Source: an uncultured Chloroflexia bacterium | GTDB taxonomy: Bacteria; Chloroflexota; Limnocylindria; Limnocylindrales; CSP1-4 | Assembly (NCBI GenBank): GCA_963813535.1 | Contig: CAWEZH010000003.1 | Location: 864,001 to 928,000, forward strand | Direction: 5' to 3' | Length of the DNA: 64,000 nt | In this document: one piece after another, positions 46,138-64,000 of the stretch | Position numbering within the stretch: the first letter of the stretch is position 1 | Layout: each line of letters starts with the position of its first letter | Notes under the pieces: model-generated | What the model was told of the DNA's origin: nothing | The model's database searches: none | The model's input: only the letters and a program-made list of their open reading frames with translations | Position numbers and translations under genes: made by a program

Positions 46138-46209
46138 CGGAACCGGCATCGTAGCGTGGGGCGACCGGACGCGCCGCCGGGCGTCGGTACTGGTACCCTC
46201 CGCGCCAGC

Positions 46210-46884
46210 ATGTGGCCCCGACTCTCGATCGTCGCCGGTCTGCTGACCGGTGTCGTGGCCGCTGCGCTGGTCATCGGGGGACTCCTCCTGCTCGCCCCGG
46301 TGCCCGGTGCCGCGCCGACGCCCGCCCCGCAGCCGTCCGCCTCGCTCGGGCTGTTGCCGTCCCCGGCGCCGAACGCGCCGGCGTCGGCCGCGATCTCGCC
46401 ATCCCCGTCGGGCAGCGGTACATCCTCGGACGGACCGGCCGCGGCGTTCCACATCGGCGAGCCCGCCCCGGCGCTCGTCGTGCCGCAGGTCGGCGGCGGG
46501 ACCATCGACCTGACGAACCTGAAGGGCAGCCCGGTCTGGGTGAACTTCATGGGCACGTACTGCCCGCCGTGTGTCGACGAATTCCCCTTGATGAACCGCT
46601 TCTCGGCACGCCACGCGGACGACGGCCTGGTCGTCATCGCGGTCGACGTCAAGGAGGACGAGGGAGCGGTCGCCGCATTCGCCGAACAGCTCGCCGCCAC
46701 GTTCCCGCTTGGTCTCGATAGCGACGGCACGGCCGCCGCCCGATGGGACGCCGTGGCCCTGCCGGTGCATTTCTGGATCGACAAGGACGGGGTCATCCGC
46801 GACGGCGCCCTGGGCGGCATCGGCCCCGACATCATGGCCCGCGGCCTGCGCACGATCATGCCGGGGGTCGACGTCCAGCCGTGA
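46210..46884 (+). CDS. TlpA/ResA-like thiol:disulfide oxidoreductase
   Basis: N-terminal TM, VWVNFMGTYCPPC, LPVHFWID. Confidence 0.88.
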   Translation: MWPRLSIVAGLLTGVVAAALVIGGLLLLAPVPGAAPTPAPQPSASLGLLPSPAPNAPASAAISPSPSGSGTSSDGPAAAFHIGEPAPALVVPQVGGGTIDLTNLKGSPVWVNFMGTYCPPCVDEFPLMNRFSARHADDGLVVIAVDVKEDEGAVAAFAEQLAATFPLGLDSDGTAAARWDAVALPVHFWIDKDGVIRDGALGGIGPDIMARGLRTIMPGVDVQP

Positions 46885-47807
46885 CGCCGGCCGGCGGACC
46901 GACGCCGGACAGCTCGGTCTCGACGCCCGCCGAGATCGATGCCGCCCTCGACGCACTCGTCGGGGCTCGACCGCCCCTGCTCCTCGTCATCGATTTCGAT
47001 GGCACGCTGGCGGTCGGGTCGCGCGACCCCGCGGTCGCGCGGATCGAGCCACTCGCCCAGCGGGCGCTTCGCCGGCTGGGCGGCCGAGCGACCGGCCATC
47101 AGAACAGGCTCCACGTCGCCGTGCTGACCGGACGGGTCGTCGCCGACGTCGCGGCACGGGTGCGGGTCGGCGGGGTCGAGTACCTCGGCGACCACGGTCT
47201 CGAACACGGCCGGCTTGCGCGTGGCGCGCGGGCGGAGCGGCTGGTCGTCACGACCGACCCGGCGTTCGACGTCCATCGCGATCCGGCGGAGACCCTGGCC
47301 GACGGCGTCGCCGGGGAGCTCGGCTCGCCGGCCTGGCTGTTCGTGGAGCGCAAAGGGCCGTCCGTCGCCTTCCACGTCCGCCAGGCCGACGACGTCCAGG
47401 CCGCGCGGAGTGCGGTCGTCGCGGCGATCGACGCCGTGGAGCGCCGGATGGGGCTCGTCCACGGGCTGGCGCACTACCGCGGTCGATCCGTCGTCGACCT
47501 TCGACCGCGCGAGGCGGGCGGGAAGCGCGAGGCCGTCGATCGGCTGGTCGACCGCCACCGCCCCGGCGCGATCGCCGTCCTCGGCGACGAGATGAGCGAC
47601 ATCGATGCGTTCGAGGCGGTCGTGGCTGCCCGCACGGCGTCGACGGGTGGGGATCCGGTCGTGGGCGTCACGATCGCGGTCCACGGCGCCACGCGGCCGG
47701 CACCGTCCGAGCTGCTGGCCGTTGCCGACCTGCGGCTGTCTGGCGCCCACTTGGTCGGACGCTGGCTGGCCGCACTCGCGCGCCGATTGGACGCGGACGA
47801 CCGCTAG
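46881..47807 (+). CDS. otsB: Trehalose-6-phosphate phosphatase-like HAD protein
   Basis: DFDGTL, LTGR, GDHGLE, ERKG…FHVR, GKREAV, GDEMSDIDAF. Confidence 0.82.
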   Translation: MTPAGGPTPDSSVSTPAEIDAALDALVGARPPLLLVIDFDGTLAVGSRDPAVARIEPLAQRALRRLGGRATGHQNRLHVAVLTGRVVADVAARVRVGGVEYLGDHGLEHGRLARGARAERLVVTTDPAFDVHRDPAETLADGVAGELGSPAWLFVERKGPSVAFHVRQADDVQAARSAVVAAIDAVERRMGLVHGLAHYRGRSVVDLRPREAGGKREAVDRLVDRHRPGAIAVLGDEMSDIDAFEAVVAARTASTGGDPVVGVTIAVHGATRPAPSELLAVADLRLSGAHLVGRWLAALARRLDADDR

Positions 47808-47810
47808 CGG

Positions 47811-49307
47811 CTATCCGGGGAGGGTGGAGATCGCGGCCGCGGCGCCCTTCACGATGTCGAGCAGTGGCGTGGGGACGAGACCGAAAAGGATCGTGAGCGC
47901 GGTCGCCGCCGCGAGCCCGCCCCACAGCAGCGCGCCATGACTGGGGGCCGGAGCGTCGCTCTCCGGGTCGCGCATGTACATGTACACCGCCACGCGGAGG
48001 TAGTAGAAGGCGGCGGCCGCCGCATTCAGCACGACCAGGACGGCGAGCGCGGTGAGCCAGCCGCCCGCCTGCACGGCAGCCAGGATCACGTAGGCCTTCG
48101 CCCAGAACCCGGCCAGCGGCGGGATCCCGGTGAGCGACAGCAGGAAGAGCAGCATCAGCGCGCCGAGCAGCGGCTCGCGGCGCCCGAGCCCGGAGAACGT
48201 CGCGAGCCCGGACGTGACACCGGTCCGCTTCTGGAGCGCAGCCACCACGGCGAACGCGCCGAGGTTCATGAACGTGTACGCCGCGCCATAGAACAGCAGC
48301 CCCTGCAGCCCGAGCACCTGGCCACCGGCATAGGCGGCCAGCCCGACCAGCATGTAGCCGGTGTGGGCGATCGAGCTGTACGCCAGCATCCGCTTCACGT
48401 TGTCCTGGGTCAGTGCCACGAGGTTGCCGACGGTCATCGTGAGGGCGGCCAGCACCATGATCACGGGCAGCCACCAATCGGACAGCGGTCCGAGCGCCTC
48501 GACGAACAGTCGCAGGATCAACGCGAACGCGCCGACCTTGGGGCCGACCGACAGGTAGCCGGTGATCGGCGTCGGCGAGCCCTGGTACGCGTCGGGTGTC
48601 CAGTAGTGGAACGGGACTGCCGCGATCTTGAAGGCGACGCCGGTCGTCAGGAACGCGAGGCCGATCGCCAGCCCCGGCTGGAGCGGTGCGGCACCGGCGA
48701 CGATGGCCTGCAGCCACTGCGCGATGCCCGGACTCGCCGGGTCGTTGCTGTTGATCAGCGTGGTGCCGGTCAGGCCCCACACGAAGGCGAGGCCGAAGAG
48801 GAAGATGGCCGAGCTGAACGAGCCGAGCAGGAAGTACTTGATGGCGCCCTCGGTCGAGTAGGCGTCGGTCTTGTGGTAGCCGGCGAGCAGGTAGCCGGGC
48901 AACACCATGAGCTCGAGTCCGAGGAACATCAGCAGCAGGTCGGCCGCGCCGGCGATCAGCATCGCGCCGGTCATCGCGAAGACGAGCACGATGGCGAACT
49001 CGGCGATCGGCAGATTGCGTGGTAGCAGGTAGTCCGGTGCGAATACGATCGTCATCGCCACGATCGAGATGAACAGCACGTCGAGGAACGTCGTCAGCGC
49101 ATCGACCTTGTACGAGCCGCCGAACGCGGTGGCCGTCTCCGCCCCGACCGAGATCGTGACCAGGGTCGTGATGGCGAGCCCGATCAGCGCGGTCGCGATG
49201 GCCGGCCCGTCGCGTCCCGGCCATACGAGGTCGACGATCAGGATCGCTGCCGCGGTCAGCACCGCGGCGATGAGCGGCGAGATCGTGACGAGATCGGCGA
49301 AGTTCAA
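47811..49307 (-). CDS. nuoN: NADH-quinone oxidoreductase subunit N
   Basis: EGAIKYF, FKIAAVPFHYWTPDAYQG, KRMLAYSSIAH. Confidence 0.96.
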   Translation of the reverse strand: MNFADLVTISPLIAAVLTAAAILIVDLVWPGRDGPAIATALIGLAITTLVTISVGAETATAFGGSYKVDALTTFLDVLFISIVAMTIVFAPDYLLPRNLPIAEFAIVLVFAMTGAMLIAGAADLLLMFLGLELMVLPGYLLAGYHKTDAYSTEGAIKYFLLGSFSSAIFLFGLAFVWGLTGTTLINSNDPASPGIAQWLQAIVAGAAPLQPGLAIGLAFLTTGVAFKIAAVPFHYWTPDAYQGSPTPITGYLSVGPKVGAFALILRLFVEALGPLSDWWLPVIMVLAALTMTVGNLVALTQDNVKRMLAYSSIAHTGYMLVGLAAYAGGQVLGLQGLLFYGAAYTFMNLGAFAVVAALQKRTGVTSGLATFSGLGRREPLLGALMLLFLLSLTGIPPLAGFWAKAYVILAAVQAGGWLTALAVLVVLNAAAAAFYYLRVAVYMYMRDPESDAPAPSHGALLWGGLAAATALTILFGLVPTPLLDIVKGAAAAISTLPG

Positions 49308-50959
49308 TGCGCGCCTCCGCCCTCGACGACGGCAACGCCGGATTCGCGGCGACGGGCCGTCGCGACCACGATGGTCCTCCCCAGCACCAGCAGGATGACG
49401 AGACCGAGAGCGCCGACGACGACCTCCGGCCCGACCGCGATGGCCTGGCCGCCCCGAGCCGCCGCCAGCACCTCGATGACCGAGCCCTGGACAAGCGTCA
49501 ACAGCAGTCCGGGCTGGACGCCGAACACGACGATGAGGGTCGCGAGCGGCACCAGCGTGAGCAACTCGATCGGCGTGATGTCGGTCAGGCGACCGCCCAG
49601 ATCGGCCAGGAACTCGGACAGCTCACCGAAGACCACCCGCTGGTACATGAACAGCAGATAGCCAGCCGCGAGGATCATGCAGAACGTGGCGATCGCCGCC
49701 GCCGCGGGGCTCACGAGGAACGTCCCGACGAGACTCAGGAACTCGCCCACGAACCCCGACAGGCCGGGCAGGCCCGCCGACGCGAACACGAAGAAGCCCA
49801 TCACCGCGGCCCACACCGGGGTTCGCGCCGCAAGCCCACCCATCTTGGCGATCGTCCGGTCGTGGGTGCGCTCGTAGATGACCCCGACCAGCAGGAAGAG
49901 CCCGCCCGTGATGAGGCCGTGGTTGATCATCTGGAGGATGGCGCCCTGGACGCCCTGCTCGGTGAACACGAAGATGCCGAGCGTCACGAAGCCCATGTGG
50001 CTGACCGACGAGTACGCGACGAGTCGCTTCAGGTCGGGCTGGACGAGCGCCACGATCGCGCCGTAGATGATCGCGATCAGCGAGAGCACGATGATCGTCG
50101 GCGCGAACGTCACCGCCGCGTCCGGGAACAGCGGGAGCGCGAAGCGCAGGAACCCGTACGCCCCGAGCTTGAGCAGGATGCCGGCCAGGATGACCGAGCC
50201 CGCCGTCGGCGCGTCGGTGTGCGCGTCGGGCAACCAGGTATGGAACGGGAACATCGGGACCTTGATCGCGAATGCGAGGAAGAACGCCAGGAATGCCCCG
50301 ACCTGGAGCGCCGGCGCGAACCCGGCCCCCGCGGCGAAATCGCGGAGCGCCACGAAGTCGAAGGCGTTCGTCCAGGTCCCGGTCGTGGACTGGTAGGCGA
50401 ACGCCGTGGCCAGGATCGCCACCAGCATCAGCAACGACCCGACGAGCGTGTACAGCACGAACTTGATCGTCGAGTAGATGCGGTTCGCGCCACCCCAGAT
50501 CCCGATGATCAGGTACATCGGGACAAGCACGATCTCCCAGAAGATGTAGAAGAGGAACAGATCCAGGGCGAGGAAGACGCCGATCATCCCGACCTCGAGG
50601 ACGAGGAACGAGATCATGTATTCCTTGATGCGGGTCTGGATCGGGACCCACGACGCGAGGATGCAGATCCATGTCAGCGTCGTGGTCAGCACGACCAGCG
50701 CCGCCGACAGGCCGTCGGCGCCCAGCTTGTACTGGATGCCGAACACGGGGATCCAGTCGTAGGCCTCGACGAACTGGAACTGGCTGCCCGCGCGGCCCGG
50801 CAGGTAGTCGACCAGCATGACCAGCGACACGACCCAGGCCGCCAGCGCGAACCCGAGCGCCACCGGTCTCGTCCAGCGACTGGGCAGGATCGCCACGACG
50901 AGCGCGCCGATCAGCGGCAGGAAGGTGATGAGCGTCAGGATCCCGAACGGCAGGGTCAT
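49304..50959 (-). CDS. nuoM: NADH-quinone oxidoreductase subunit M
   Basis: FYIFWE, KVPMFPFHTWLPDAH, KRLVAYSSVSHMG. Confidence 0.96.
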   Translation of the reverse strand: MTLPFGILTLITFLPLIGALVVAILPSRWTRPVALGFALAAWVVSLVMLVDYLPGRAGSQFQFVEAYDWIPVFGIQYKLGADGLSAALVVLTTTLTWICILASWVPIQTRIKEYMISFLVLEVGMIGVFLALDLFLFYIFWEIVLVPMYLIIGIWGGANRIYSTIKFVLYTLVGSLLMLVAILATAFAYQSTTGTWTNAFDFVALRDFAAGAGFAPALQVGAFLAFFLAFAIKVPMFPFHTWLPDAHTDAPTAGSVILAGILLKLGAYGFLRFALPLFPDAAVTFAPTIIVLSLIAIIYGAIVALVQPDLKRLVAYSSVSHMGFVTLGIFVFTEQGVQGAILQMINHGLITGGLFLLVGVIYERTHDRTIAKMGGLAARTPVWAAVMGFFVFASAGLPGLSGFVGEFLSLVGTFLVSPAAAAIATFCMILAAGYLLFMYQRVVFGELSEFLADLGGRLTDITPIELLTLVPLATLIVVFGVQPGLLLTLVQGSVIEVLAAARGGQAIAVGPEVVVGALGLVILLVLGRTIVVATARRRESGVAVVEGGGAH

Positions 50960-52947
50960 CCGCGGTTCCCGGCGAGCAGCAGGTAGGAGCCGGCCATGAC
51001 CAGCAGACCGATGGCGATGCCAAGCGCGTAGTTCTGGACATGGCCCGTCTGGACGCGTCGGATACCGCGGCCCGCGCCGACCGTCGAGCTGCCGATGGCG
51101 TTGACGGTGCCATCGACGACCTCACGGTCGAACCACCAGATCGCCTGGGCGAGCCGTCCGCCGATGACGATGAACAGCAGGTGGTAGAGCTCGTCGAACC
51201 ACCACTTGTTGAGGGACGCGCGGTACAGGAACGCCAGACCCGGCCGCGCGCTGACTTCGCGCACGACCTCGGGCCGCGCGGGCAGGTGGATCCCGCCGAT
51301 GTCGAGGCCGAACAGCCGCCATGCGAGGACGAGGCCGATGACCGCGACGGTCACGCTGGCCAGGATCAGCCCACCGTCGACGCCGAACAGCTGGTACTCC
51401 TCGTGGGGCAGGTGGAGCAGCTCGGTCGCCTCATGGAAGACCGGCTCGAGCCACTCGTGCAGCCGGCTGTCGCCCAGCGGGGTGCCGAGCAGCAGCCCCA
51501 GGAGCACCGACGGGATAGCCAGCAGGATCAGCGGCACGGTCATGACCGCCGGCGACTCGTGGATGCGATCCCAGATCTCCTTGGGGCCGCGGAAGACGCC
51601 CCAGAACGTCAGGCCCATGAGCCGGAACATGTAGAACGCGGTCAGCAGGGCGACGAACAGGCCGATCCCCCAGACCCAGTAGAAGCCGAACTTGAACGCC
51701 TCGCCGAGGATCTCGTCCTTCGAGAAGAAGCCTGCCAGGGGCGGGATGCCCGAGATGGCGATCGAGCCGATCAGCATCGTCACGTAGGTGATCGCGATCT
51801 TCGGCGCCAGTCCACCCATCCGGCGCATGTCCTGCTCCTCGTGGACCGCGTGGATGACCGAGCCGGAACCGAGGAACAGCAGGCCCTTGAAGAAGCCGTG
51901 GGTCATGAGGTGGAAGATCGCGGCCGTGAATGCTCCGACCCCAAGGGCCGCGAACATGTACCCGAGCTGTGACAGCGTCGAGTAGGCGAGGACCCGCTTG
52001 ATGTCGGTCTGGGTCATCGCGATCGAGGCGGCCAGGATGGCCGTGAATATCCCGATCGCCGCGACCACGACCATCGCCGACGGCGCGGCCGCGAACAGCG
52101 GATTGGCGCGGGCGACCAGGTACACGCCGGCGTTGACCATCGTCGCGGCGTGGATCAGCGCCGACACCGGCGTCGGGCCTTCCATCGCATCGGGCAGCCA
52201 CACGTGGAGTGGGAACTGGGCGCTCTTGCCCATCGCCCCGGCGAACACGAGCAGGGCGACGATCGGCACGGGGATCGGGAAGGCGACGAGCGTCGGGTCG
52301 AGCATGATCTCGATCGAGTGGCGCACGTCCAGGGTCCCGGTGTTCAGGAAGATGGCCATGATGCCGAGCGCGAAGCCGACGTCACCGACGCGGTTGACGA
52401 TGAACGCCTTCTTGGCGGCAAGCGCCGCGGATCGCTTCCGGTACCAGAAGCCGATGAGCAGGTAGCTCGACAGTCCGACCAGCTCCCAGGCGACGAACAC
52501 GACCAGCCAGTTGTCGGCCAGGACGAGCAGCAGCATCGAGAACATGAACAGGTTCAGGTACGCGAAGAACCGCCAGTAGCCCGGGTCGTGGGCCATGTAC
52601 CCGATCGAATAGACGTGAACGAGCAGGCCGATCGTCGTCACGACGATCAGGAGGCAGGCCGTGAGCGGGTCGACGAACAGGCCGAGGGTCACCTGGAAGC
52701 CACCGGCCGGGATCCACGTCCACGGCCCGACGGCGTAACCGTGGAGATCCTCGGTGCCCTCGATCAGCGGGGCCGTACCGGTCAGGACGTTGACCACGGC
52801 GACCATCGCGATGATCCAGGCGATGAAGATGACGCCGACGGGGACCCAGTGGGCCTGCTTCCCGAGCCGCCGCCCGACGAGCGCGGTGAACAGGAAACCC
52901 GCCATCGGCAAGACGAGCAGCAGCGGCAGCAGCCCTTCGATCGTCAC
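50956..52947 (-). CDS. nuoL: NADH-quinone oxidoreductase subunit L
   Basis: GKSAQFPLHVWLPDAMEGPTPVSALIHAATMV. Confidence 0.97.
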   Translation of the reverse strand: MTIEGLLPLLLVLPMAGFLFTALVGRRLGKQAHWVPVGVIFIAWIIAMVAVVNVLTGTAPLIEGTEDLHGYAVGPWTWIPAGGFQVTLGLFVDPLTACLLIVVTTIGLLVHVYSIGYMAHDPGYWRFFAYLNLFMFSMLLLVLADNWLVVFVAWELVGLSSYLLIGFWYRKRSAALAAKKAFIVNRVGDVGFALGIMAIFLNTGTLDVRHSIEIMLDPTLVAFPIPVPIVALLVFAGAMGKSAQFPLHVWLPDAMEGPTPVSALIHAATMVNAGVYLVARANPLFAAAPSAMVVVAAIGIFTAILAASIAMTQTDIKRVLAYSTLSQLGYMFAALGVGAFTAAIFHLMTHGFFKGLLFLGSGSVIHAVHEEQDMRRMGGLAPKIAITYVTMLIGSIAISGIPPLAGFFSKDEILGEAFKFGFYWVWGIGLFVALLTAFYMFRLMGLTFWGVFRGPKEIWDRIHESPAVMTVPLILLAIPSVLLGLLLGTPLGDSRLHEWLEPVFHEATELLHLPHEEYQLFGVDGGLILASVTVAVIGLVLAWRLFGLDIGGIHLPARPEVVREVSARPGLAFLYRASLNKWWFDELYHLLFIVIGGRLAQAIWWFDREVVDGTVNAIGSSTVGAGRGIRRVQTGHVQNYALGIAIGLLVMAGSYLLLAGNRG

Positions 52948-53035: not shown

Positions 53036-53353
53036 TCACTGGCGCATCGAGTCGTATTCGTCGACTAGCGGGGTCTTCTTGTTGCGATAGATCGCGATGA
53101 CGATCGCCAGGCCGACGGTCGCCTCGGCGGCTGCGACGGCCATGACCATCAGCGCGAAGACCGCGCCCTGGGCTGTCGCGTCGGCGCGTGGCCCGAACAA
53201 TCCGAACGCCACGATGCTCAGGTTGACCGCGTTCAGCATCAGCTCGATCGACATGAGCATGCTGATGGCGTTGCGCCGCGCCAGGAACCCGAACGAGCCG
53301 ATGGCGAACAGGATCCCGGACAGGATCAGGTAGGTGTCGAGACTGTCGCTCAC
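53036..53353 (-). CDS. nuoK: NADH-quinone oxidoreductase subunit K
   Basis: [22 protein letters not shown]. Confidence 0.96.
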
Positions 53354-53943
53354 GACGGCCCGCCAGGCTCGCGCTTCGCCAGGAAGATGCCGCCGATCAC
53401 CGCGGCGAGTAGCAGCACGCTCACGATCTCGAACGGGAACACGAACTGCTGGAACAGGACGCGCGACATGATCGACGTGCCGAGTCGAGCGTGGCGCGCG
53501 GCCTCACCCCAATCGGTCGCGCTGACCGCCAGGGCGATGACCACGGCGATGACGATCGCCGCGATCGATGCGGGCCCGGCCTGGGTCTGGAACACCAGCC
53601 GGCTCGGGGCGTCCTTCGTCTGCGTGAGCATGATCGCGAACAGGATCAGGACACTGATCGCGCCGATATAGATGATGACCTGGGCCGCGCCGAGGAGCGC
53701 GACGCCCATCAGGACGTAGATCCCGGCCAGGGCCATGAAGCAGACGATCATCGCCAGACCGCAGCGGATGATGTCGCGCATCGTCACGACCAGCAGACCG
53801 CTGAAGATCATCACCGCCGCCAGGATCCAGAGCAGGACGTCCTCCCAGTCCTGGTGTAGGGCGATGAGCATCAAGGCGGCGACCCCGAAGACCGCGCCCA
53901 TGAGCAGGAGCGCGAGGATGATCTGGGGGAGCTTCGCGAGCAC
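53350..53943 (-). CDS. nuoJ: NADH-quinone oxidoreductase subunit J
   Basis: [31 protein letters not shown]. Confidence 0.94.
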
Positions 53944-53945
53944 GG

Positions 53946-56900
53946 CTACTCGTGATGGCCGGGCCCGAGCGCGGCGACCGCGCCGTGCCCGTCATGGCCG
54001 TGTCCGTCGTGGCCATTGCCGTTCGGGCGGCCCGGCGGGAGCCCAGTTATCGTCGGTGGGAGGACCGGCAAAAGGCGAGCCGGGTCGTATACCCGGCCCT
54101 CGGCCTGCGCCCTGCTCAGCCAGTCGCGTTCGCGGCGGATATAGGTGACCTCGGTCTCCTTGTCGATCTCGGCGAGGGCTATCAGGTCGATGATCGGCTC
54201 GGACCGGCCGGTGTGGGCGAGCTCGAAGTCGGCGCCGTCGCGCAGGGCGTCGTACGGGCACGCATCCACGCAGATCCCGCAGAGGATGCAGCGGCTCTCA
54301 TCGACCTCGTACTTCTCGAGGATGCGCGGCTTCGGCATCAGCGCGCCGGTCGGACACGTCTCCGCGCAACGCCCGCACGACACGCACGGTGTGTCGTTGA
54401 GGCTCATGTCGAGCGGGGTCGTGACCAGCGTGTCGAAGCCGATCCGCATGAAGTCGTAGCACGCGGCGCCGACGACCTCTGCGCACACGTTGGCGCAGCG
54501 CCCGCAGTCGATGCAGCGCGACGGCTCGCGCAGGATGAAGGCGTGGGAGTCGTCGCGGATGTAGTCGTGGTTGATGCCGGTGAACCGGTTCTCGGTGACC
54601 GAGCGGTAGCCGGCCCCCTGGTGGTGCTGCGGCTCGAGCGTGGCAAGCGTCGTCGAGTACTCGATGCCAAGGCGTCGGAGGTCGCAGAAGCCGATGGCCT
54701 CGCAGGTGCACTGCAGGCAGCGGGTCGACTCGGCCATCGCGGCTTCGCGGGTGTACGGGAGCTCGTATTCGATGTAGCTGTGATTGCGCTCCTCGGCCGG
54801 TAGTGGCGTCAGCCGATAGCGGGGTTCCTTGATCTCCGCGGTGAACGGCACGATCGACAGGAACTCGGGCTGCGGCTCGGCGAGCGTCTGGCGGGTCCTG
54901 ATCGCGTCCAGGTCCATGCCCTTGAGGTAGGCGTCGACGGCGTACGCCGCGCGGCGGCCCTCGGCCACGGCCTCGACCACGGTCGCGGCGCCGATGCGGA
55001 CGTCGCCCGTACCGAAGACGCCGGGCCGACCGGTCGAGAACGTGACGGCGTCGGCCTTGAGCCGACAATTCTTGGTCGGCTCGACACCCTCGTTACCCGG
55101 CGCGCCGACCCAGTCGAGCTCCGGGCCCTGGCCGATGGCAAGCAGCACGCGATCGCAGGGGATCGTGAACTCGGTGCCCGACGCAGGCTCGGGTCGCCGC
55201 CGGCCGGACGCGTCCGGTTCGCCGAGCTGCATCCGGATGAACTCGACACCCGTGACCTTGCCCGTCTTCTCGTCGACCAGGACCCTCGTGGGACCGGCCT
55301 GGAAGATCGCCGTCACGCCCTCCTCGATCGCCTCGTGCACCTCGTCGGCCGCCGGCATGTCCTTCATGTCGCGCCGATAGACGAGGGTCACCTCGCTGGC
55401 GCCCTGGCGGACCGACGTCCGCGAGCAGTCCATCGAGGTGAACCCGCCGCCGATGACCACGACGCGCTTCCCGGCGTGGCCCGGATAGGGCAAGCCGAGC
55501 GTGGCCGTGCGCAGGTACTCGAGACCGTCGATGACGCCGTCGGCGTCCTCGTTCGGGATGCCGAGCTCATTGGTGTCGTAGCAGCCGATCGCGATGACGA
55601 CCGAATCGAAGCCCTGGTTGGTCAGGTCGTCGAGCGTGAAATCGCGACCCAGACCGGCGTCACACACCATCTTCGCGCCGAGCCGGACGACCGACTCGTA
55701 TTCCGCCTCGAGCACCTCGACCTTCGGCAGCCGGTACTGGGGGATGCCGTAGCGGAGCATGCCGCCCGGCGCCGGGTCACGCTCGAAGACGGTGACCTCG
55801 TGGCCGGCGATGAGCAGGTAGTAGGCGGCGGCCATGCCGGCCGGTCCGGAACCGATGACCGCGGCCCGCCGGCCGGAGCCGACCTGCTGCTCGAACGGGA
55901 CCGGCGGATCGACGCCGTCGTCGAGCATCGACTTGAGGACCTGGTCGCCGGCATAGCGGTGCGTGTCGCGGATGGCGATCGCCTCGTCGACCTCGTCGCG
56001 CCGGCAGTGCTCCTCGCACGGCGCCGGGCAGACCCGCCCGAGGACCGACGGGAACGGGATCGTCCGCTTGAAGATCCGTGTGCTCTCGCGCCAGTTCCCC
56101 TCGGCGTTGGCCTTGAGGAAGCCCGGGATATCGATGTGACTCGGGCACTTGTTCTGGCACGGCGGGAGGCAGTACGCGTTGTGGTCCGAGAAGATCAGCT
56201 CGAGGTTGGTGCGCCGCAGCCGACGGACCTCCTCGGTCTGGGTCTGGACCTTCATCCCGTCCTCGCAGGAGCGCGAGCACGAGATCGGCGGGTGCTCCTC
56301 GCCCTCGACCTCGACGACGCACATCCGGCACGCGCCGAAGCCCGGCAGCTTCGGCTCGTAACACAGGGTCGGGATCTCGATGCCGTTGTCGCGGCAGACC
56401 TCGAGGATCGTCTGACCCTCGAAGCCCTCGACGACGCGGCCATCGACCTCGATCCGGATGCGCGGCGTCGACTGTGGTCGCTGCGGCGACTGCGTGTCGA
56501 GCAGGCGTTCCGCGAGCGATGCGCGGGTCGTCGCCGGTGTCGATGCCTCGATCTCGGCGGGTCGGCCCTCGGGGCGGGCGAGGGTATCGGTCATCGAGGC
56601 GGCCTCGGGGGCGACCGGTGTGGGTCGGCTGGCAGGGTCGAAGGCGGACTCGAAGTATCGCATCCCACTCGTGAGCGGGAGCGTCGCCAGCCGCTCGTGG
56701 TCGCATAGCGCCGACGCGACGATGTCGTGGCTGAGGTCCGCGGCGAGCTGGCCGTCGGCCGGCCGGAGCAGACCGGCTTCGCGCCGATCGACGATCTCGG
56801 CGAGTCGCTTGGTCCCGATCCGACACGGGATCGACTTGCCGCACGCCTCGTTCGCGCAGAACCGGGTCAGCACCCCGACGAGCTCGAGGAGGTCTGTGCG

Positions 56901-57887
56901 GTCGTCGACGACCACGAGCGACCCGGATCCGAGATGGGCACCGGCCGAGCGCAGGCTGTCGAACTCATACGGCGTGTCGAGGGCATCGGGTGGCAACAGC
57001 CCGCCCGATGGCCCGCCGATGAGCACCGCCTGCATCGAGCGCCCGTCCGGCAGCTTCCCGCCGAGCTTGAGCACCTCGCGCAGCGGCGTGCCGAGCGGGA
57101 CCTCGGCCACGCCGTCCTTGCCCGGCGTGCGGATCTGGACCAGCACCGTGCCGGGCGCGTGGGTCGAGCCGGTGGCGCGGAACGCGTCGGGTCCCTGCCG
57201 CAGGATCCACGGCACGGCGGCGAGGGTCTGGACGTTGTTGACGACGGTCGGTCGATCGAACAGGCCGACCTCGGCCGGGTGCGGCGGTCGCTGCTCGGGC
57301 TGGCCCCGCTTGCCCTCGAGCGCCTTCAGGAGGACCGTCTCCTCGCCGAGCATGTAGGCGCCCTGCACGGGGCGGACCGAGAGCCACAGCTCTCGGCCGG
57401 AGGCGAGGATGTCATCGCCGAGGAACCCGGCGTCGGTGGCGTGGCCGATGGCGGTCGAGAGGGCGGCGATGACCTCGGCATCCTCACCGCGGACGGCGAT
57501 GAAGGCTTCTGTCGCGCCGATCGCGGTGGCGGCGATGGCCGTGCCCTCGATGACGGCGTACGGGTCCCGGAGCATCAGGGCACGGTCCGTGTGCGAGGCG
57601 GGATCGGCGCCGTAGCCGTTGGCGACGACGTAGCGCCTGTCCGCCTCGGTCGAGGCGGCCGTCCGCCACTTGTCGCCGGTCGGATAGCCGGCACCACCGC
57701 GACCGCGAAGTCCGGACGCGCTGATGACCGCGATGGTCCCTGCGCCGCCGAGGTCCCGCACGGCCCGTTGGAGCCCCTCGAAGGCGCCATCGGCGACGGC
57801 GGCATCGAGATCCGTGGGGTCCCTGACGTCGGCCCTCGCCAGCAGGATGCGCGGCCAGGCGGCCGGCGTCCGCAGGATCGTCACCAT
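53946..57887 (-). CDS. Fusion: NuoF-like, NuoG N-terminal FeS with inserted GltD/NfnB FAD domain, 2[4Fe-4S], C-terminal half of NuoI (possibly two genes split at ATG 56594)
   Basis: GLRGRGGAG, GEET; CYEP…GACRMC; PCQNKCP, GSGPAG, LRYGIP, GGGFTSMD, VYRR; CIDCGRC, CVSCGRC; YEVDESRCILCGICVDACPYDAL…DFEL. Confidence 0.85.
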   Translation of the reverse strand: MVTILRTPAAWPRILLARADVRDPTDLDAAVADGAFEGLQRAVRDLGGAGTIAVISASGLRGRGGAGYPTGDKWRTAASTEADRRYVVANGYGADPASHTDRALMLRDPYAVIEGTAIAATAIGATEAFIAVRGEDAEVIAALSTAIGHATDAGFLGDDILASGRELWLSVRPVQGAYMLGEETVLLKALEGKRGQPEQRPPHPAEVGLFDRPTVVNNVQTLAAVPWILRQGPDAFRATGSTHAPGTVLVQIRTPGKDGVAEVPLGTPLREVLKLGGKLPDGRSMQAVLIGGPSGGLLPPDALDTPYEFDSLRSAGAHLGSGSLVVVDDRTDLLELVGVLTRFCANEACGKSIPCRIGTKRLAEIVDRREAGLLRPADGQLAADLSHDIVASALCDHERLATLPLTSGMRYFESAFDPASRPTPVAPEAASMTDTLARPEGRPAEIEASTPATTRASLAERLLDTQSPQRPQSTPRIRIEVDGRVVEGFEGQTILEVCRDNGIEIPTLCYEPKLPGFGACRMCVVEVEGEEHPPISCSRSCEDGMKVQTQTEEVRRLRRTNLELIFSDHNAYCLPPCQNKCPSHIDIPGFLKANAEGNWRESTRIFKRTIPFPSVLGRVCPAPCEEHCRRDEVDEAIAIRDTHRYAGDQVLKSMLDDGVDPPVPFEQQVGSGRRAAVIGSGPAGMAAAYYLLIAGHEVTVFERDPAPGGMLRYGIPQYRLPKVEVLEAEYESVVRLGAKMVCDAGLGRDFTLDDLTNQGFDSVVIAIGCYDTNELGIPNEDADGVIDGLEYLRTATLGLPYPGHAGKRVVVIGGGFTSMDCSRTSVRQGASEVTLVYRRDMKDMPAADEVHEAIEEGVTAIFQAGPTRVLVDEKTGKVTGVEFIRMQLGEPDASGRRRPEPASGTEFTIPCDRVLLAIGQGPELDWVGAPGNEGVEPTKNCRLKADAVTFSTGRPGVFGTGDVRIGAATVVEAVAEGRRAAYAVDAYLKGMDLDAIRTRQTLAEPQPEFLSIVPFTAEIKEPRYRLTPLPAEERNHSYIEYELPYTREAAMAESTRCLQCTCEAIGFCDLRRLGIEYSTTLATLEPQHHQGAGYRSVTENRFTGINHDYIRDDSHAFILREPSRCIDCGRCANVCAEVVGAACYDFMRIGFDTLVTTPLDMSLNDTPCVSCGRCAETCPTGALMPKPRILEKYEVDESRCILCGICVDACPYDALRDGADFELAHTGRSEPIIDLIALAEIDKETEVTYIRRERDWLSRAQAEGRVYDPARLLPVLPPTITGLPPGRPNGNGHDGHGHDGHGAVAALGPGHHE

Positions 57888-57888
57888 G

Positions 57889-58566
57889 TCAGGCGCGGGC
57901 CGGCGCGCCCGGGCGACCGCCTCCCTCGAGCGCGGCGCCGAGCGCCTCCACGTAACTCGATTCCGATGGCCGGTGCCGCTCGACCGCGGCGGCCTGGTCG
58001 GTGGCCGTCGGCGGCTCGAAGCGCAAGTGCGCGTAGTAGGTCGCCGTCCCGTAGATCATCGCGTACCACGCACCCGTGGCGTGACTGATGCGCTTGAGCG
58101 CCGCGACCGGCAGGTAGCCGTACGCCGTCTGGGTCGCCTCGAGGATCTCCAGCATGCGCGCGGGGTCGTGGTCGAAGTCCACGAGGATCCGGTCCACCTC
58201 GGCCATGTCGATCGGGTGGTACGGGCTGAATGCCGGGTCGGGTACCGGTCGGCCCGATCGGCGCAGGGCCAATTCCTCGCGCCGCTCGCCATACGTCTCG
58301 GGGGCGCCCCAGTGGACGTGGTAGCGGCCGCGGGTATCGATGCCGCCCATGTCGATGCACTCGATCGGGCAGGCCTGGGCGCACTGGAAACACGTCTCGC
58401 ATTTGAGCGTGCCCCATTCGTCGTAGAGCAGCTGGAGCCGCCCGCGGAACTTGCTCGCGACCTCGGCGGGCACCTCCGGGTACATCACGGTGGCCTTGGG
58501 CTCGAAGAAGCGCCGAAGCGTCAGCGCCATGCCCTTGGCGATGCCGAGACCGGGGATGAAGGTCAT
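57889..58566 (-). CDS. Fusion of NuoI N-terminal half and NuoE N-terminal helical domain (no 2Fe-2S domain)
   Basis: GMALTLRRFF…TVMYPE…FRGR…KCETCFQCAQACP, then ILEATQTAYGYLP…IYGTATYY. Confidence 0.85.
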   Translation of the reverse strand: MTFIPGLGIAKGMALTLRRFFEPKATVMYPEVPAEVASKFRGRLQLLYDEWGTLKCETCFQCAQACPIECIDMGGIDTRGRYHVHWGAPETYGERREELALRRSGRPVPDPAFSPYHPIDMAEVDRILVDFDHDPARMLEILEATQTAYGYLPVAALKRISHATGAWYAMIYGTATYYAHLRFEPPTATDQAAAVERHRPSESSYVEALGAALEGGGRPGAPARA

Positions 58567-58569
58567 CGC

Positions 58570-59917
58570 CTACCGACCGATCACGACGATCGCCGCCGCC
58601 GTCACGAACAGGTTGAGCAGCGATGCCGGCAGCAGCCACTTCCAGGCGAAGCTCATCAGCTGGTCGATGCGGACTCGCGGCAAGCGTGCCGCGCATCCAG
58701 ACGAACGTGAACACGAGGGCGTACGTCTTGAGCATGAACCAGAGGATACCGGCGACCCACGGCAGCCCGATGAACGCCCACGCGCCGACCAGCGCGACGA
58801 TGAACAGGTTGGCCAGCACGAACCCGGCGAGCAGCGCCTGCCACCACTTGATGCTCGAGCGCAGCAGCCAGAACGGGGCCCCGAACAGGAGCGTCAACAC
58901 GACTGGCGCGATGCCCACGATGAACAGCAGCCCGATGTTGAACGACGCCGGGTCGAGGCTCAGCTGGACCTGCCATGCCTCGGGCAACGCGAACGGCGCA
59001 TTCCATCCGCCGAGGAACAACGTCACGAAGAGCGCCGACACGATGAACACGTTCACGTACTCGGCGAAGAAGAAGAACCCGAAACGCATGCCCGAGTACT
59101 CGGTCGCGAAGCCGGCGACGATCTCGGAGTCGGCCTCGGTCAGGTCGAATGGGGTCCGGTTCGCCTCCGCGGTCGCCGCGATGAAGAAGATGAGTGCGCC
59201 CAGTGGTTGCTGGAAGATGTACCAGTCGGTGAACCAGCCTTGCTGGTTCTCGACCAGCGTGTTCAAGCTCATCGTCCCGGCCAGCAGCAGCAGTCCCACG
59301 ACCGACAACGCGAGCGGGATCTCGTAGCTCACAACCTGCGCCGCGGCTCGCAGGCCGCCCAGCAGCGAGTACTTGTTGTAGCTCGACCAGCCGGCCATCA
59401 ACAGGCCGACGACGGACAGGCCGCCGATCGCGAAGAAGTACAGCAGTGCGAGGTTGAGGTCGTAGCCGAACAGGCCCGGCGCGAACGGGATGACCAGCAG
59501 CGTCAGGACGCTGGCCAGGTACACGACCACCGGCGCCCAGGTGAAGACGACCGAATCGGCGCCGGTCGGGGTGAAGTCCTCCTTCATCAGGACCTTCAGC
59601 CCGTGCACCACCGAGAGCAGCGAACCGTACGGTCCGACCCGGTCGGGCCCGATCCGAAGATTCATCAGCGCGATGATCTTCATCTCCATATAGATGATCA
59701 GGAACGCGGTCGGGATGGTCATCAGCAGGATCACCGTCACCGCGACGACGAACCGGACGATCGGCAGATTGGCCACCAGGACGTCGATCACTGCCTGGCC
59801 GAACAGCTGGATCACCAGGATCAGCCCGACCGTGAGCAGGATGAGCAGCGGGACGGCGATGAAGACGACCTTGCCCGGCAGCGTCAGCCGACTCCACCCG
59901 CGACCGATGACCGTCAT
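58570..59917 (-). CDS. nuoH: NADH-quinone oxidoreductase subunit H (one extra base near 58683, probable sequencing error)
   Basis: RIGPDRVGP, NKYSLLGGLR, RTPFDLTE, EYSG. Removing one base restores LPRVRIDQLMSFAWKWLLP…TAG at 58570. Confidence 0.92.
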
Positions 59918-59942
59918 GCGTCCGAACTACCTTGCGCGTCGC

Positions 59943-60043
59943 GGGGCGAGTCGAGGCCAAGGCGCCGGCGAGCAGGGGAGCGAGCGTAGCCCGAGCTACG
60001 TGAGCGACCCAGCGCAGCCGGCAACGCCGGCATCGGCCGTCCC
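59943..60043 (-). repeat. ~100 bp structured intergenic repeat, copy 2
   Basis: Reverse complement matches 45282-45380. Confidence 0.8.
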
Positions 60044-60062
60044 GTGGCGCGCCGGGCGACCG

Positions 60063-61315
60063 TCACTTATCCACTCCGCCCATGATCGGGTCGAGGACGC
60101 CATGACCGCCATCGTGTCCGCGACCAAGTGCCCGGGCATGAGGACGCCGACCGACTGAAGGTGCAGGAACGACGGGTCGTGGATGCGCATCCGGAACGGC
60201 TGGTCGGTCCCGTCGCTGATGGCGTATGTCCCGTACTGGCCGCGCGGCGCCTCGATGCCGACGTACGCGCGTCCCGGACGCGGCCGGAGGAGCCGCGGCA
60301 GCTTGGCCATGATCGGACCGTCCGGCATCTGGTGGAGACACTGGTCGATGATCCGCAGGCTCTGCTTGATCTCGTCCATCCGCAGTAGATAGCGGGCCAG
60401 GCAGTCGCCCTCCGTCCGCGTCGGGATGTCGAAGTCCAGCTCCGGATAGATCGAATACGGGTGCGCGCGGCGCATGTCGAACGGCACGCCCGTCGCCCGC
60501 AGGTTCGGCCCACTCATGGTCATCCGGAGCGCCGTCTTCGAGTCGATCGTGCCCAGGCCCCGCATCCGGCGGACGAAGATCTCGTTCTCGTTGAGCAGCG
60601 CGTTACCGGCCTCGATCTGCTCGGTCGCGTGACCCATCCAGTCGCCGAGCCGGCTCATGAACTCGTGGTTCAGGTCGCCGTTGACGCCGCCGATGCGGAA
60701 GTAGTTGAAGAGCATCCGCTGACCGGTCAGCGAGGCGAGCATCTCGACGATCTCGTCGCGTTCGATGAACGACCACAGGATCGGTGTGAGTCCGCCGAGG
60801 TCGAGTGCCATCCAGCCCAGGAACAGGGCGTGGCTGGCGACCCGGTTCAGCTCGCCAGACAGCACGCGGATGTACTCCGCGCGCCGGGGCACCTCGACGT
60901 CGAGCAGCTTCTCGAACGCCATGACGCCGGGCCATTCGCAGAAGAGGGAGCTGACGTATTCGAGGGGGTCGAGGTAGCAGATCGCCTGGTGGTAATCGGC
61001 GTTCTCGCACAGCTTCTCGACGCCGCGATGGAGGTAGCCGAGGACCGGATCGAGGTCGACGACCTTCTCGCCGTCGAGCTTGAGCACGACGCGCAGCACG
61101 CCGTGGGTCGAGGGATGCTGCGGTCCCATGTTGAGGAACATCTCGCCATCGCGGAGCGTGTAGAACTCGGCCTCGCGCTCGGTCCGCGGCGGGTACGGCG
61201 GGATGGGCTCGAAGACACCCGCGTCCTGGTCGAGCTTGATGCGCGGGTCGTCCGGCGAGCCGGCGAAGAACTCGTCGTGCTGCTGGGCACCGGGCCGGGG
61301 CGTGGTCGTGGTCAT
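60063..61315 (-). CDS. nuoD: NADH-quinone oxidoreductase subunit D (one base missing near 60095, probable sequencing error)
   Basis: NMGPQHPSTHGVLR, GYLHRGVEK, EAPRG. Adding one C restores SLDPIMGGVDK-stop. Confidence 0.93.
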
Positions 61316-61334: not shown

Positions 61335-61883
61335 TCACGCGCCGATGCGCCGGACGGTTCCGGCCTTCGGGGTCACGCGTGGCTGTTGGGTGCGCTCCAT
61401 GGGCCGGACGCCGGCACCGGGCGATCGGGCGGCGTCGTCGGCGAGGTAGAAGTCCTTCCGAAGCGGGAAGCTCTGGTAGTCGGGTGGCATGTAGATGCGG
61501 CGCAGGTCGCGGTTGCCCTCGAACGTGATACCGAACATGTCGTACGCCTCGCGCTCCATCCACTCGGCGCCCTTCCACATGAAGGTCACCGATGGGACTC
61601 GCGGATCCTCGCGCGACAGGCCGTCGGCGATGACCCGCAGCCAGTCGGGCGTCGTCGGGCTCCAGAGGTGGTAGACGACCTGCATGACCTCGCCGGTGTC
61701 GACGCCGCACAGGTCGGCGAGGAACTCGAACGCGAATTCGGGTTCGTCGTGCAGCGACGTGATCACGGGCACGACGTCGCCGGCGCCGATCCTGATCTCG
61801 GTCTCGTCATGTCGCTGTCGGACCGGCCCCGTCAGCTGCTCACCGAAGCGCCGCTCGAGGCGTGCCTTGAATGCGCGATCCAT
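61335..61883 (-). CDS. nuoC: NADH-quinone oxidoreductase subunit C
   Basis: LADLCGVD, EREAYDMFGI, FPLRKDF. Confidence 0.94.
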   Translation of the reverse strand: MDRAFKARLERRFGEQLTGPVRQRHDETEIRIGAGDVVPVITSLHDEPEFAFEFLADLCGVDTGEVMQVVYHLWSPTTPDWLRVIADGLSREDPRVPSVTFMWKGAEWMEREAYDMFGITFEGNRDLRRIYMPPDYQSFPLRKDFYLADDAARSPGAGVRPMERTQQPRVTPKAGTVRRIGA

Positions 61884-61885
61884 GA

Positions 61886-62638
61886 TCAGACTTCGGCGGG
61901 GACGGTCGGCCCGATCGGCCGCTCGGGCCAGTGGCCGCGCCGATCCTTGATGAGTTGCTGCAGCTTCATCATCCCGAAGATGAGCCCCTCGGGCCGCGGC
62001 GGGCAGCCGGGCACGTAGACATCGACGGGCATGACCCGGTCGATTCCCTCGACTGTCGAGTAGCTCCGCTTGTAGCGGCCCCCCGAGCACGTACAGTCGC
62101 CCATCGCGACGCACCACTTCGGCTCGGGCATCTGCTCCCAGAGACGGACCAGCGGGCCGGCCATCTTGGTGGTGAGCGTGCCGGCGACGATGAGCACGTC
62201 CGCCTGCCGGGGACTCGCCCGGAACGGGAACATGCCCCAGCGGTCCATGTCGTTCTTCGACGTCGCCGCGGACATCATCTCGATCGCGCAGCAGGCCAGA
62301 CCGGACAGCAGGGGCCACAGGCTGTTCATCCGGATCAGGTCCAGGACATAGTCAGCCTTGGTCGGGATGACCTCGAGCGGCCCGCTCCACCGGGCATTGT
62401 CCCGACGGGACTCAGCGCTCGCCTCGAGCTCGGCGAGGTGGGTGATGTCGGTCGGCCGGCCACCGTCATAGGCAGCCGGGTCGGCAGCCTGCCACAGCAT
62501 GTTGGGCACGACGATCGGCGAGATGACGTCGTCGGCCGGCCGCTTTGCGGGCACCGGCGGCTGCGACGGGACGTCCGAGGAGATCTGGGTCGCGTCGGAC
62601 GATCCAGCACCGAGCCCGTCGCGGTTGGCCCTTCTCAC
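61886..62638 (-). CDS. nuoB: NADH-quinone oxidoreductase subunit B
   Basis: [33 protein letters not shown]; GTG overlaps the nuoA stop. Confidence 0.94.
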
Positions 62639-63000
62639 CGCCACGTCAGGGCTCCCTTCCGCCAGGCATACGCGAGGCCAAGCAGGAGGATCACGACGAA
62701 CACGACCATGCTGATGAACAGCCCGGCCGGGTTGAGGCTCGGGTCCTTGAACACGATGGCCCAGAGGTAGATGAAGATCACCTCGATGTCGAACGCGACG
62801 AACAGCAGCGCGTAGATGTAGAACGACAGCCCGAACCGTCCGTGGGTATCGCCGTACGTGTCGATGCCCGACTCGTACGGGAGGCCCTTGTGCACGTCGC
62901 CTTTGTTCCGATGGGAGACGAGCCACGCCGCGGCGATCGTCCCGAACACGAACGTCACGCCGGCGAAGGCGAAGCCCACGACGTACCAGAGCTGTTCCAA
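62635..63000 (-). CDS. nuoA: NADH-quinone oxidoreductase subunit A
   Basis: [23 protein letters not shown]. Confidence 0.95.
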
Positions 63001-63364: not shown

Positions 63365-64000
63365 CTAGTCGGCAGCGCCTCGCGTGCCTCGCGGGAGACG
63401 ATACGCGAGGACCCTGAGCGGGGCATCGGGCGGCCACGCGCGACCGAACACCATGACCCGGAACCGACCCATCGCGGCAGGGTCGAGCAGACGCATGAGG
63501 GCCGATCGAAGAAGGGTGTAGTCCTCCAACGTCGTGGCCGGGTCCGCCTGGATCTCGCGCAGCCGATCCTCGACGCCGAGACCCATCAGCGCCTCGGCCT
63601 GGGTCGTGATCCCGAGGGTGGTCAGGCCGGCTGCCTCGGCCGCCCGCCGGACCGCGGTCACGTCCACGTGCGCAGTGAGGTCCTGCCGACCGACGAGCCG
63701 GTACGGGTCGTCGCTGACCTGGTGGCGGACATACGCGCGCAGCGTGCCATCCCGGCGACGAAGCGGGTCGTACAACTCCTGGGCGATGGCGCCGTAGTCG
63801 ATCAGGAGCGCGAGTCCGCGGCGCAGTGGCGCGACCGCCGATGCCACCCAGTCGTCGATCGCGAGGCAGATCTCCGCCGTCTGGCCGGTCGCGAGCTCGA
63901 TGCCCTCCGCGTCCAGCCGTGCCGCGAGGTCCGGCGTCGTCGGTTCGACCTCGACCTCGACGAATGCACCGTCCGCCGCGACATCGACGGCGAGCTCGCG
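63365..64000 (-). CDS. MidA/NDUFAF7-family SAM-dependent methyltransferase, 5' end outside window
   Basis: LLIDYG, GTLRAY, GRQDLTAHVD, TTQAEAL, LLDPAAMGRFRV; frame open to the window end. Confidence 0.8.
   Translation of the reverse strand, partial: RELAVDVAADGAFVEVEVEPTTPDLAARLDAEGIELATGQTAEICLAIDDWVASAVAPLRRGLALLIDYGAIAQELYDPLRRRDGTLRAYVRHQVSDDPYRLVGRQDLTAHVDVTAVRRAAEAAGLTTLGITTQAEALMGLGVEDRLREIQADPATTLEDYTLLRSALMRLLDPAAMGRFRVMVFGRAWPPDAPLRVLAYRLPRGTRGAAD

Follow-up and report, generated by a model that had tools for sequence, protein, structure and literature searches.

A complex I operon of Limnocylindria with NuoI encoded in two halves and a predicted Nfn/Stn-type NAD(P)H input module between them

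Complex I receives electrons from NADH through NuoEFG or, in its 11- and 12-subunit forms, from ferredoxin or F420. In our study, we examined a complex I (nuo) operon of an uncultured Chloroflexia bacterium of soil, which is located on the minus strand, at 47.8–63.0 kb, of a 64,000-nucleotide stretch of contig CAWEZH010000003.1 (hereafter the window; GC content ~68%; all coordinates are window positions). The operon contains no intact nuoI; the two halves of NuoI are encoded in two neighbouring open reading frames (ORFs), X and Y, and NuoE-, NuoF- and NuoG-like parts are encoded between them. Y probably represents two genes, here called F (~431 amino acids) and G (~882 amino acids). The same three-part module, in the same gene order, is found in the soluble enzymes NfnABC of C. 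saccharolyticus (9BOV/9BP5; identity of 9BOV from Table 1 of PMC11829005), Stn of S. ovata (8OH5) and an archaeal counterpart (9N5U), where a NuoE-like protein is followed by a NuoF-like protein and by a NuoG N-terminal part with an inserted GltD flavin adenine dinucleotide (FAD)/NADPH domain. As described in PMC10482914 and PMC11829005, electrons pass in these enzymes from NADPH and FAD over the clusters of subunit A (or StnC) to a site formed by cluster B1, flavin mononucleotide (FMN) and cluster C1, and bifurcation to ferredoxin needs this B1-FMN-C1 site plus B3/B4 (PMC11829005). The closest published idea that we found is the predicted Nuo-Bfu (Schut et al., 2022; PMC9304861), a 14-subunit complex I (A–N) whose NuoEFG is exchanged for BfuABC and which has been described for Deferribacteres, Proteobacteria, Planctomycetes and Nitrospirae. 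The text consulted from PMC9304861 (figures and supplements lay outside the scope) mentions Chloroflexi for the Mbh/Por types only, and a split NuoI, a GltD-type (Nfn) BfuA and Actinobacteria are not mentioned there. In the mbx-like operons of PMC4758237 (Degli Esposti, 2015), a GltD-related flavoprotein is said to substitute for NuoI. Neither a split NuoI nor a nuo operon with an Nfn-type module was found described in the literature searched (supplements and subscription journals lay outside the scope), which agrees with the original prediction for this DNA, made from the sequence alone, that knew of no such example.

The operon of the window resembles each of these systems and differs from each. 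Like NfnABC and Stn it contains the three-part module, with all NfnA cluster cysteines and both dinucleotide motifs aligned; NfnABC and Stn are tetramers, soluble, and their C-terminal domain is of the FdhF type, whereas G has the C-terminal half of NuoI at that place, the NuoE-like protein carries the N-terminal half, and the class of the window lacks the C1 [2Fe-2S] cluster, the B2–B5 domains and one B1 cysteine. With Nuo-Bfu as predicted it shares a Bfu-type module inside a nuo cluster, which is proposed to feed a proton-pumping, quinone-reducing complex; compared with the description in PMC9304861, the module here is of the Nfn type, takes the nuoI position and is joined to both parts of NuoI. 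The mbx-like operons, too, combine a GltD-type NAD(P)H flavoprotein with a complex-I-like membrane complex, but there NuoI is substituted in an Mrp/Mbx-type complex (PMC4758237), whereas the window keeps both halves in a full nuoA–N set. Compared with canonical complex I, the membrane arm and the Q-module are ordinary and all sequence features of NuoI are present. However, the halves of NuoI are on separate polypeptides, and ~1,300 residues belonging to other proteins are encoded between them; the molybdopterin-like domain of NuoG is absent, no N1a site is present in this genus, and the genes of the input module follow nuoH and precede nuoJ instead of lying between nuoD and nuoH. We consider it likely, on the sequence features described below, that the operon encodes a proton-pumping complex I with a reduced, non-bifurcating Nfn/Stn-type (Bfu-family) input module spliced into the inter-motif loop of NuoI, which would act as an NAD(P)H:quinone enzyme.

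The X protein contained the start of NuoI followed by the helical part of NuoE. Residues 12–75 matched positions 1–63 of the 121 positions of the NuoI profile TIGR01971 (E 8e-13, 48.0 bits), and residues 125–186 matched positions 2–63 of 145 of the NuoE family PF01257 (E 5e-8). Among solved chains, X residues 10–81 aligned to mycobacterial NuoI (8e9g_I, 8–79) and also to 2fug_9 (6–68), and the closest solved chains to residues 118–185 were the NuoE-like subunits of NfnABC (9bov_C, 20–87) and Stn (8oh5_A). For the last 151 residues of Y the best NCBIfam match was again NuoI, now at positions 71–117 of 121 (E 1.5e-15, 56.8 bits). A 78-residue piece of Y aligned in a single stretch to 8e9g_I (89–131), 2fug_9 (87–127) and 7ar7_I (99–151); polyferredoxins outranked NuoI for this piece, through summed weak repeats with no single significant stretch. 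The two matches are complementary and do not overlap, the break falls between the two cluster motifs, and both scores are below the whole-protein cut-off of TIGR01971 (113 bits). The composition of X and the NuoI-like end of Y were both as the original prediction had proposed.

The motif count and its conservation agree with a divided domain. Three CxxCxxCxxxC motifs were present in Y and one in X; two 2[4Fe-4S] domains need four motifs, so the unpaired motif of G requires that of X as its partner. All 16 motif cysteines and both CP prolines were invariant in 13 X-type sequences and 14 G C-termini, in alignments with identities down to ~35% (X-type) and ~61% (G-type). In the genome of the window (3.28 Mb, 92.9% complete) only six weak NuoI matches were obtained, none at the cut-off, and the best two were the halves; the genome scan thus bore out the lack of another intact nuoI, and an intact NuoI was likewise not found in 4/4 further genomes of the class. 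In domains of this kind each motif reportedly binds one cluster with three of its cysteines and the second cluster with the remaining one, an arrangement attributed to work of Sazanov and Hinchliffe from 2006; because each motif would share its cysteines between the clusters, both polypeptides would provide ligands to N6a as well as to N6b. When the two chains were modelled together with the four clusters, the ipSAE was 0.34, while the best of three controls reached 0.00. In the calibration, 58 of 80 solved complexes passed the mark, as did 2 of 110 mismatched pairs; among the values at or below 0.60 were only 7 of the 80 solved complexes and both of the passing mismatches. The prediction used its own alignments and riding ligands, and the calibration counts hold roughly. 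The runs agreed in at least 75% of contacts, with a partner pLDDT (fold confidence) of at least 49; since NuoI structures are already solved, the pass may reflect likeness to NuoI. Complementarity, invariance, co-occurrence and a weak model score together suggest that the halves assemble in trans.

The window copy of the operon contains three isolated 1-nucleotide indels in conserved coding stretches, as compared with a close relative whose DNA identity is 93% (97% in X). In nuoD one base is missing near 60095 and the last ~10 codons are shifted. In nuoH an extra T near 58683 changes the frame after VWMRGTL, and the last 36 codons (canonical PRVRIDQLM...) are in another frame. At the junction of F and G an extra G near 56595 removes the TGA of an ATGA overlap, in which the NuoF-like gene of the 93%-identical relative stops and its neighbour begins; Y therefore reads as one ORF because this extra G, most likely an assembly indel, removes the stop of F. 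The single 1313-residue polypeptide that the original prediction had assumed is thus probably two proteins. In a motif screen of 14 fetched relatives, the NuoF-type and GltD-type motifs were in different frames in nine, one locus alone (L033) had both in one frame, and four were unscored. Contigs assembled from public sequencing runs, which represent related strains (at least 90% likeness; no run held more than 0.28 of the sequence words), lacked the extra base of nuoH (58681/58682) in seven contigs of three runs and the extra base of the F/G junction (56597) in one contig, the sole cover there. Their pattern suggests that the three indels are errors of the assembly consensus and not biological.

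Three 1-nucleotide indels within 3.5 kb (nuoD, nuoH and the F/G junction) could also be taken to mean that the split itself is a misassembly or frameshift, or that the locus is a dead cluster of pseudogenes. We consider this very improbable, and it is already largely refuted. A distance of ~4 kb and three conserved domains separate the halves, a layout that a frameshift could not produce; the close relative is free of the indels, and public contigs are free of two of them. X was conserved with its stop codon in relatives, and many genomes, assembled from short or from long reads, share this stop and the start of the gene after it. The GC content by codon position was 0.67/0.52/0.91 in X and 0.70/0.50/0.91 in Y, and both fit genuine coding frames in DNA of ~68% GC. 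The X/F junction is bridged gap-free by independent contigs in two runs.

Between the NuoI halves, the family domain search found the NuoF-like, NuoG Fe-S, GltD/NfnB-type FAD and 2[4Fe-4S] domains that the original prediction had listed, and no molybdopterin domain was found in Y. Residues 1–417 of Y form the NuoF-like region. Residues 476–1183 contained a [2Fe-2S] site, a GltD-type domain with two [4Fe-4S] clusters and FAD and NADPH sites, a CxxCxCx5C site and a 2[4Fe-4S] ferredoxin domain, so that G has the [2Fe-2S], GltD insert and ferredoxin domain of an Nfn-type BfuA. The nearest solved chains to Y residues 476–1211 were NfnA of C. saccharolyticus (9bov_A, E 7e-160), StnC of S. ovata (8oh5_C, E 3e-141) and an archaeal NfnA (9n5u_A), and for Y residues 12–421 they were the B subunits of these enzymes, which bears out the likeness to Stn and Nfn that had been proposed. 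All cluster cysteines of G and its GSGPAG, GGGFTSMD and VYRR motifs aligned with NfnA. The similarity stops just past the second ferredoxin motif, where NfnA and StnC continue into the FdhF-like domain (CxxCxxxC) whereas Y continues into a third CxxCxxCxxxCP, which is the second motif of NuoI. Beyond this half, the C-terminal tail of G (53946–54080) is of low complexity and rich in Gly, Asn and His (GNGHDGHGHDGHG...); its length varies in relatives of family f1 of the class, it is absent in family f3, and it may bind metal.

The NuoF-like and NuoE-like parts are reduced. F aligned only to residues 104–509 of the 584 residues of NfnB, and the N- and C-terminal Fe-S domains of BfuB are missing. 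The N3/B1 motif of F contained three of the four cysteines, as EACGK[S/T/A]xPC, in 11/11 sequences of the class, and NGYGADP was present in place of the acidic NADEGDPG motif. GRGGAG[F/Y]P, GEET and an RPP[H/Y]P segment were kept in all 11 sequences. X contained five cysteines (56, 59, 62, 66 and 70), all in or just after its one CxxCxxCxxxCP; since all of them sit in the NuoI part, the NuoE-type [2Fe-2S] site is absent from X. This NuoE-like part decays stepwise in the class: families f3 and f2 and some members of f1 keep the thioredoxin-like domain with a CxCxxC only, a remnant of the C1 [2Fe-2S] site of BfuC, and in the genus of the window this domain is deleted.

In the arrangement that we propose, NuoI, NuoE, NuoF and NuoG would be replaced by the three gene products X, F and G. 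The NuoI halves would fold together into one 2[4Fe-4S] ferredoxin domain, with N6a and N6b each ligated by both polypeptides, and this domain would anchor the module on NuoB, NuoD and NuoH. Electrons from NADPH would enter at the FAD of G, and those from NADH probably at the FMN of F; the Fe-S chain of G would carry them on to N6a/N6b, from where they would reach N2 in NuoB and finally quinone. The route that leads to the off-pathway FdhF-like clusters in the soluble enzymes would here lead into the NuoI C-half. The class of the window lacks C1, B2, B3 and B4, with one B1 cysteine replaced by S, T or A, and keeps the glycines of the FMN site, GEET and all GltD FAD/NADPH motifs including VYRR. 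Because the parts needed for bifurcation are lost, the module of the class would be a plain NAD(P)H dehydrogenase. The use of NADPH by G is suggested by the conserved GltD motifs, and the nucleotide specificity and the direction of electron flow given here are likewise deduced.

Several points weigh against this reading. The window copy carries the nuoD and nuoH frameshifts and would be defective if the indels were real. The two-chain model separates the halves from the controls, as the idea of a joint fold would have it, but the prediction is weak and its fold confidence is low (pLDDT 49–60). F is without one canonical N3/B1 cysteine throughout the class, with the acidic residues of NADEGDPG replaced, and is the least conserved part (43–62% identity vs. 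58–88% for G); judged by these residues, it may be impaired or have other properties. Such features also favour an enzyme that accepts NADPH only, in which F would be a structural relic without a working FMN/NADH site and the GltD-type FAD of G the sole feed: F evolves fastest, its N3/B1 cysteine is lost in every one of the 11 sequences, its acidic residues are replaced, and its NuoE-like partner is degraded stepwise until the thioredoxin-like domain is gone. We regard this as unlikely, as the glycine-rich, GEET and RPP[H/Y]P segments of F are kept in all 11 sequences and a full-length F was found in all 14 loci, including those of streamlined 1.1-Mb genomes.

A membrane transhydrogenase PntB is encoded in the same genome (G000:C2:1840987-1842372), and since it is present, a complex I that oxidises NADPH would not be needed for balancing the nucleotide pools, which is a further point against our reading. 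The idea that this complex I is a stand-in for a missing transhydrogenase was ruled out for this genome by the presence of PntB. Complex I is reversible. Its operon in the window might accordingly be asked to make NADPH rather than burn it, as a membrane-bound, energy-coupled transhydrogenase or NADP+ reductase that exchanges hydride between NAD(H) and NADP(H), with quinol and the proton motive force (or ferredoxin, in the second lineage described below) as the third partner, in the manner of confurcating Stn/Nfn. The module stems from enzymes of NADPH:NAD+/ferredoxin exchange, as these are described in PMC10482914 and PMC11829005, both nucleotide sites are kept, and the second lineage has F2 with the full BfuB set and X2 with a complete four-cysteine NuoE. 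However, the parts that define bifurcation are missing in the class of the window, PntB already provides a transhydrogenase, and reverse electron flow to NADP+ would cost proton motive force; we hold this alternative to be quite unlikely and retain the NAD(P)H:quinone reading.

The split-NuoI layout is conserved across all four sampled families of the class, and the search of relatives for the same split was thus positive throughout. X-type proteins were present in 41/41 genomes of two families (one as a fragment). In a phylum sample of 401 genomes (E ≤ 1e-20; six unpublished genomes included), X was found in 23/23 genomes of family f1, 4/4 of f2, 16/16 of f3 and 0/2 of f4, and in 0 of the remaining 355 genomes. 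Both f4 genomes contained both NuoI halves, in frames of 239/298 and 834 amino acids, and no intact NuoI. The order B-C-D-H-X-F/G-J-K was found in 14/14 fetched loci; these include genomes of ~1.1 Mb, where the split-NuoI operon was the only complex I found. Apart from a few odd labels, the titles of the related records named Candidatus Limnocylindrales/Limnocylindria or unclassified Chloroflexota. Genes for a PAS-domain protein and an MBL-fold hydrolase are inserted in family f3 between G and nuoJ (L021:12297-13543, and likewise in L022–L025); the gap between G and nuoJ is ~5 kb in L025.

In our study, we also found the same split in a second, distant lineage, which together with the probable division of Y and the loss of the Stn bifurcation features goes beyond the original prediction. 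A profile search of 1.84 billion representatives returned 76 clusters at E ≤ 1e-30 and, in addition, the divergent full-length forms P0177, P0196, P0202, P0210 and P0232. A metagenome scan with P0177 gave 110 relatives, of which 80 loci were kept (L129–L208); the eight loci examined out of these 80 all showed the order B-C-D-H-X2-F2-G2-J-K-L-M. In one of them (L148:9001-14148), X2 contained NuoI positions 3–66 of 121 and a complete NuoE (146 bits vs. a cut-off of 141) with its four cluster cysteines. F2 was a full BfuB with an N-terminal thioredoxin-like [2Fe-2S] domain, ESCGKCVPCR and C-terminal 2x[4Fe-4S], and the NfnA-like G2 ended in NuoI positions 69–114 of 121. The C1 site of BfuC and the four-cysteine B1, N-terminal and C-terminal domains of BfuB, all absent in the window, are thus present in this lineage, and its insert is predicted to be a complete bifurcating-type NfnABC core. 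The identities between the lineages were 26–30% for X, 38–46% for F and G and ~51% for NuoB; they favour neither one origin nor two. Among 120 listed homologues the only organism label was 'Thermoleophilia bacterium' (69% identity). When the 401 phylum genomes were searched with P0177, nearly all matches were ordinary NuoE (query ~90–245), and among the matches listed, full-length ones (2–246) were from members of the class only. P0196, P0210, P0232 and P0202 are further divergent fusions of the NuoI N-half to NuoE; those of the 'YPYEKRE' type include P0232, labelled 'Chloroflexi bacterium'; in P0202 the N-terminus is divergent and the [2Fe-2S] site complete.

We tentatively suggest, as a possibility that we still hold to be doubtful, that a bifurcating NfnABC core was spliced into NuoI once and that complex I with this core spread to at least two distant lineages. 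If this is true, the enzyme of the second lineage would couple four substrates, NADH, NADPH, ferredoxin and quinone/proton motive force, by proton pumping, as a membrane-bound bifurcating/confurcating transhydrogenase, and the class of the window would have a stripped aerobic descendant of this machine, an NADPH-accepting complex I with the N6a/N6b domain built from two polypeptides.

The remaining parts of the operon are those of an ordinary complex I. Profile searches gave the gene order nuoA-nuoB-nuoC-nuoD-nuoH-X-Y-nuoJ-K-L-M-N on the minus strand (Table 1), and each element of the operon that had been predicted without an intact nuoI was found in its place. All seven membrane subunits (NuoA, H, J, K, L, M and N) were identified. 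The Q-module is complete with NuoB, NuoC and NuoD; it looks functional, as the N2 cysteines of NuoB (CCAIE ... GCPP) and QHPSTHG of NuoD are kept. The true start of nuoC must be below 61886. No single NuoI with two CxxCxxCxxxCP motifs was found between nuoH and nuoJ or in the genome. A standard N-module of NuoE (N1a), NuoF (four-cysteine N3) and NuoG with the molybdopterin-like domain was not matched in the operon, and the NuoE-, NuoF- and NuoG-type matches of X and Y all scored below the family cut-offs. The ORF at 58656–59960 (434 amino acids) and several other long ORFs that overlap the operon had no family match and were treated as chance frames of high-GC DNA. The operon is flanked upstream by a Methyltransf_28-family gene (63365–64000, open at the window end) and downstream by a sortase-domain protein (45406–46956). 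Elsewhere in the genome, ~500 kb from the operon and outside any nuo operon, a second NuoE-NuoF fusion (655-amino-acid frame) and a NuoG-N gene (G000:C3:418619-424333) adjoin a molybdopterin protein with an in-frame TGA; this cluster is probably of the selenocysteine formate-dehydrogenase type.

Table 1. Positions of the nuo genes, of X and Y and of their parts and domains in the window
Feature	Window position	Strand	Length or residues	Assignment
nuoA	62635..63000	-		Pfam Oxidored_q4, E 3e-30
nuoB	61886..62926 (listed ORF; NuoB domain ~61886-62374)	-		TIGR01957, E 3e-64
nuoC	61335..62318 (listed ORF; domain in C-terminal half)	-		TIGR01961, E 8e-32
nuoD	59996..61315	-		NF008974, E 3e-132, profile positions 2-356 of 366
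nuoH	58570..59917	-		Pfam NADHdh, E 5e-90
X	57889..58566	-	225 aa	NuoI N-half fused to NuoE N-terminal helical domain
NuoI N-half in X	58327..58566	-	X aa 1-80	Amphipathic N-terminus, YPE, first CxxCxxCxxxCP
NuoE/BfuC-like helical domain in X	58009..58215	-	X aa 118-186	PF01257 match; thioredoxin-like [2Fe-2S] domain missing
Y	53946..57887	-	1313 aa as single ORF	NuoF-like, NuoG-N/GltD, NuoI C-half
F (probable gene)	56592..57887	-	Y aa 1-~431	NuoF/BfuB-like FMN protein
G (probable gene)	53946..56594	-	Y aa 432-1313	NfnA/StnC-like protein ending in NuoI C-half
NuoI C-half in G	54153..54320	-	Y aa ~1190-1245	Second CxxCxxCxxxCP and 'DFEL' segment
Complex1_51K			Y aa 55-226	Pfam domain
NADH_4Fe-4S			Y aa 340-417	Pfam domain
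Fer2_4			Y aa 476-551	Pfam domain
Fer4_20			Y aa 573-652	Pfam domain
Pyr_redox_2			Y aa 675-977	Pfam domain
Fer4_Nqo3			Y aa 1118-1183	Pfam domain
Fer4			Y aa 1193-1216	Pfam domain
nuoJ	53350..53943	-		NF005168, E 3e-32
nuoK	53036..53353	-		NF004322, E 1e-34
nuoL	50956..52947	-		NF005141, E 5e-217, exceeds cut-off
nuoM	49304..50959	-		TIGR01972, E 3e-174
nuoN	47811..49307	-		TIGR01770, E 9e-122

A whole bacterial class, whose relatives are labelled Candidatus Limnocylindria/Limnocylindrales among metagenome-assembled genomes of soil and freshwater, appears to use a different complex I input, which would derive from a bifurcating NADPH enzyme and be welded into a core subunit; the locus illustrates how the pump can acquire new input modules. 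The 2[4Fe-4S] domain, if built in trans, is a natural experiment on the folding and cluster loading of Fe-S domains, and the second lineage provides a candidate Bfu enzyme of the membrane that can be tested. Should NADPH serve directly as a donor to respiration, the models of redox balance and energy yield of these organisms need revising.

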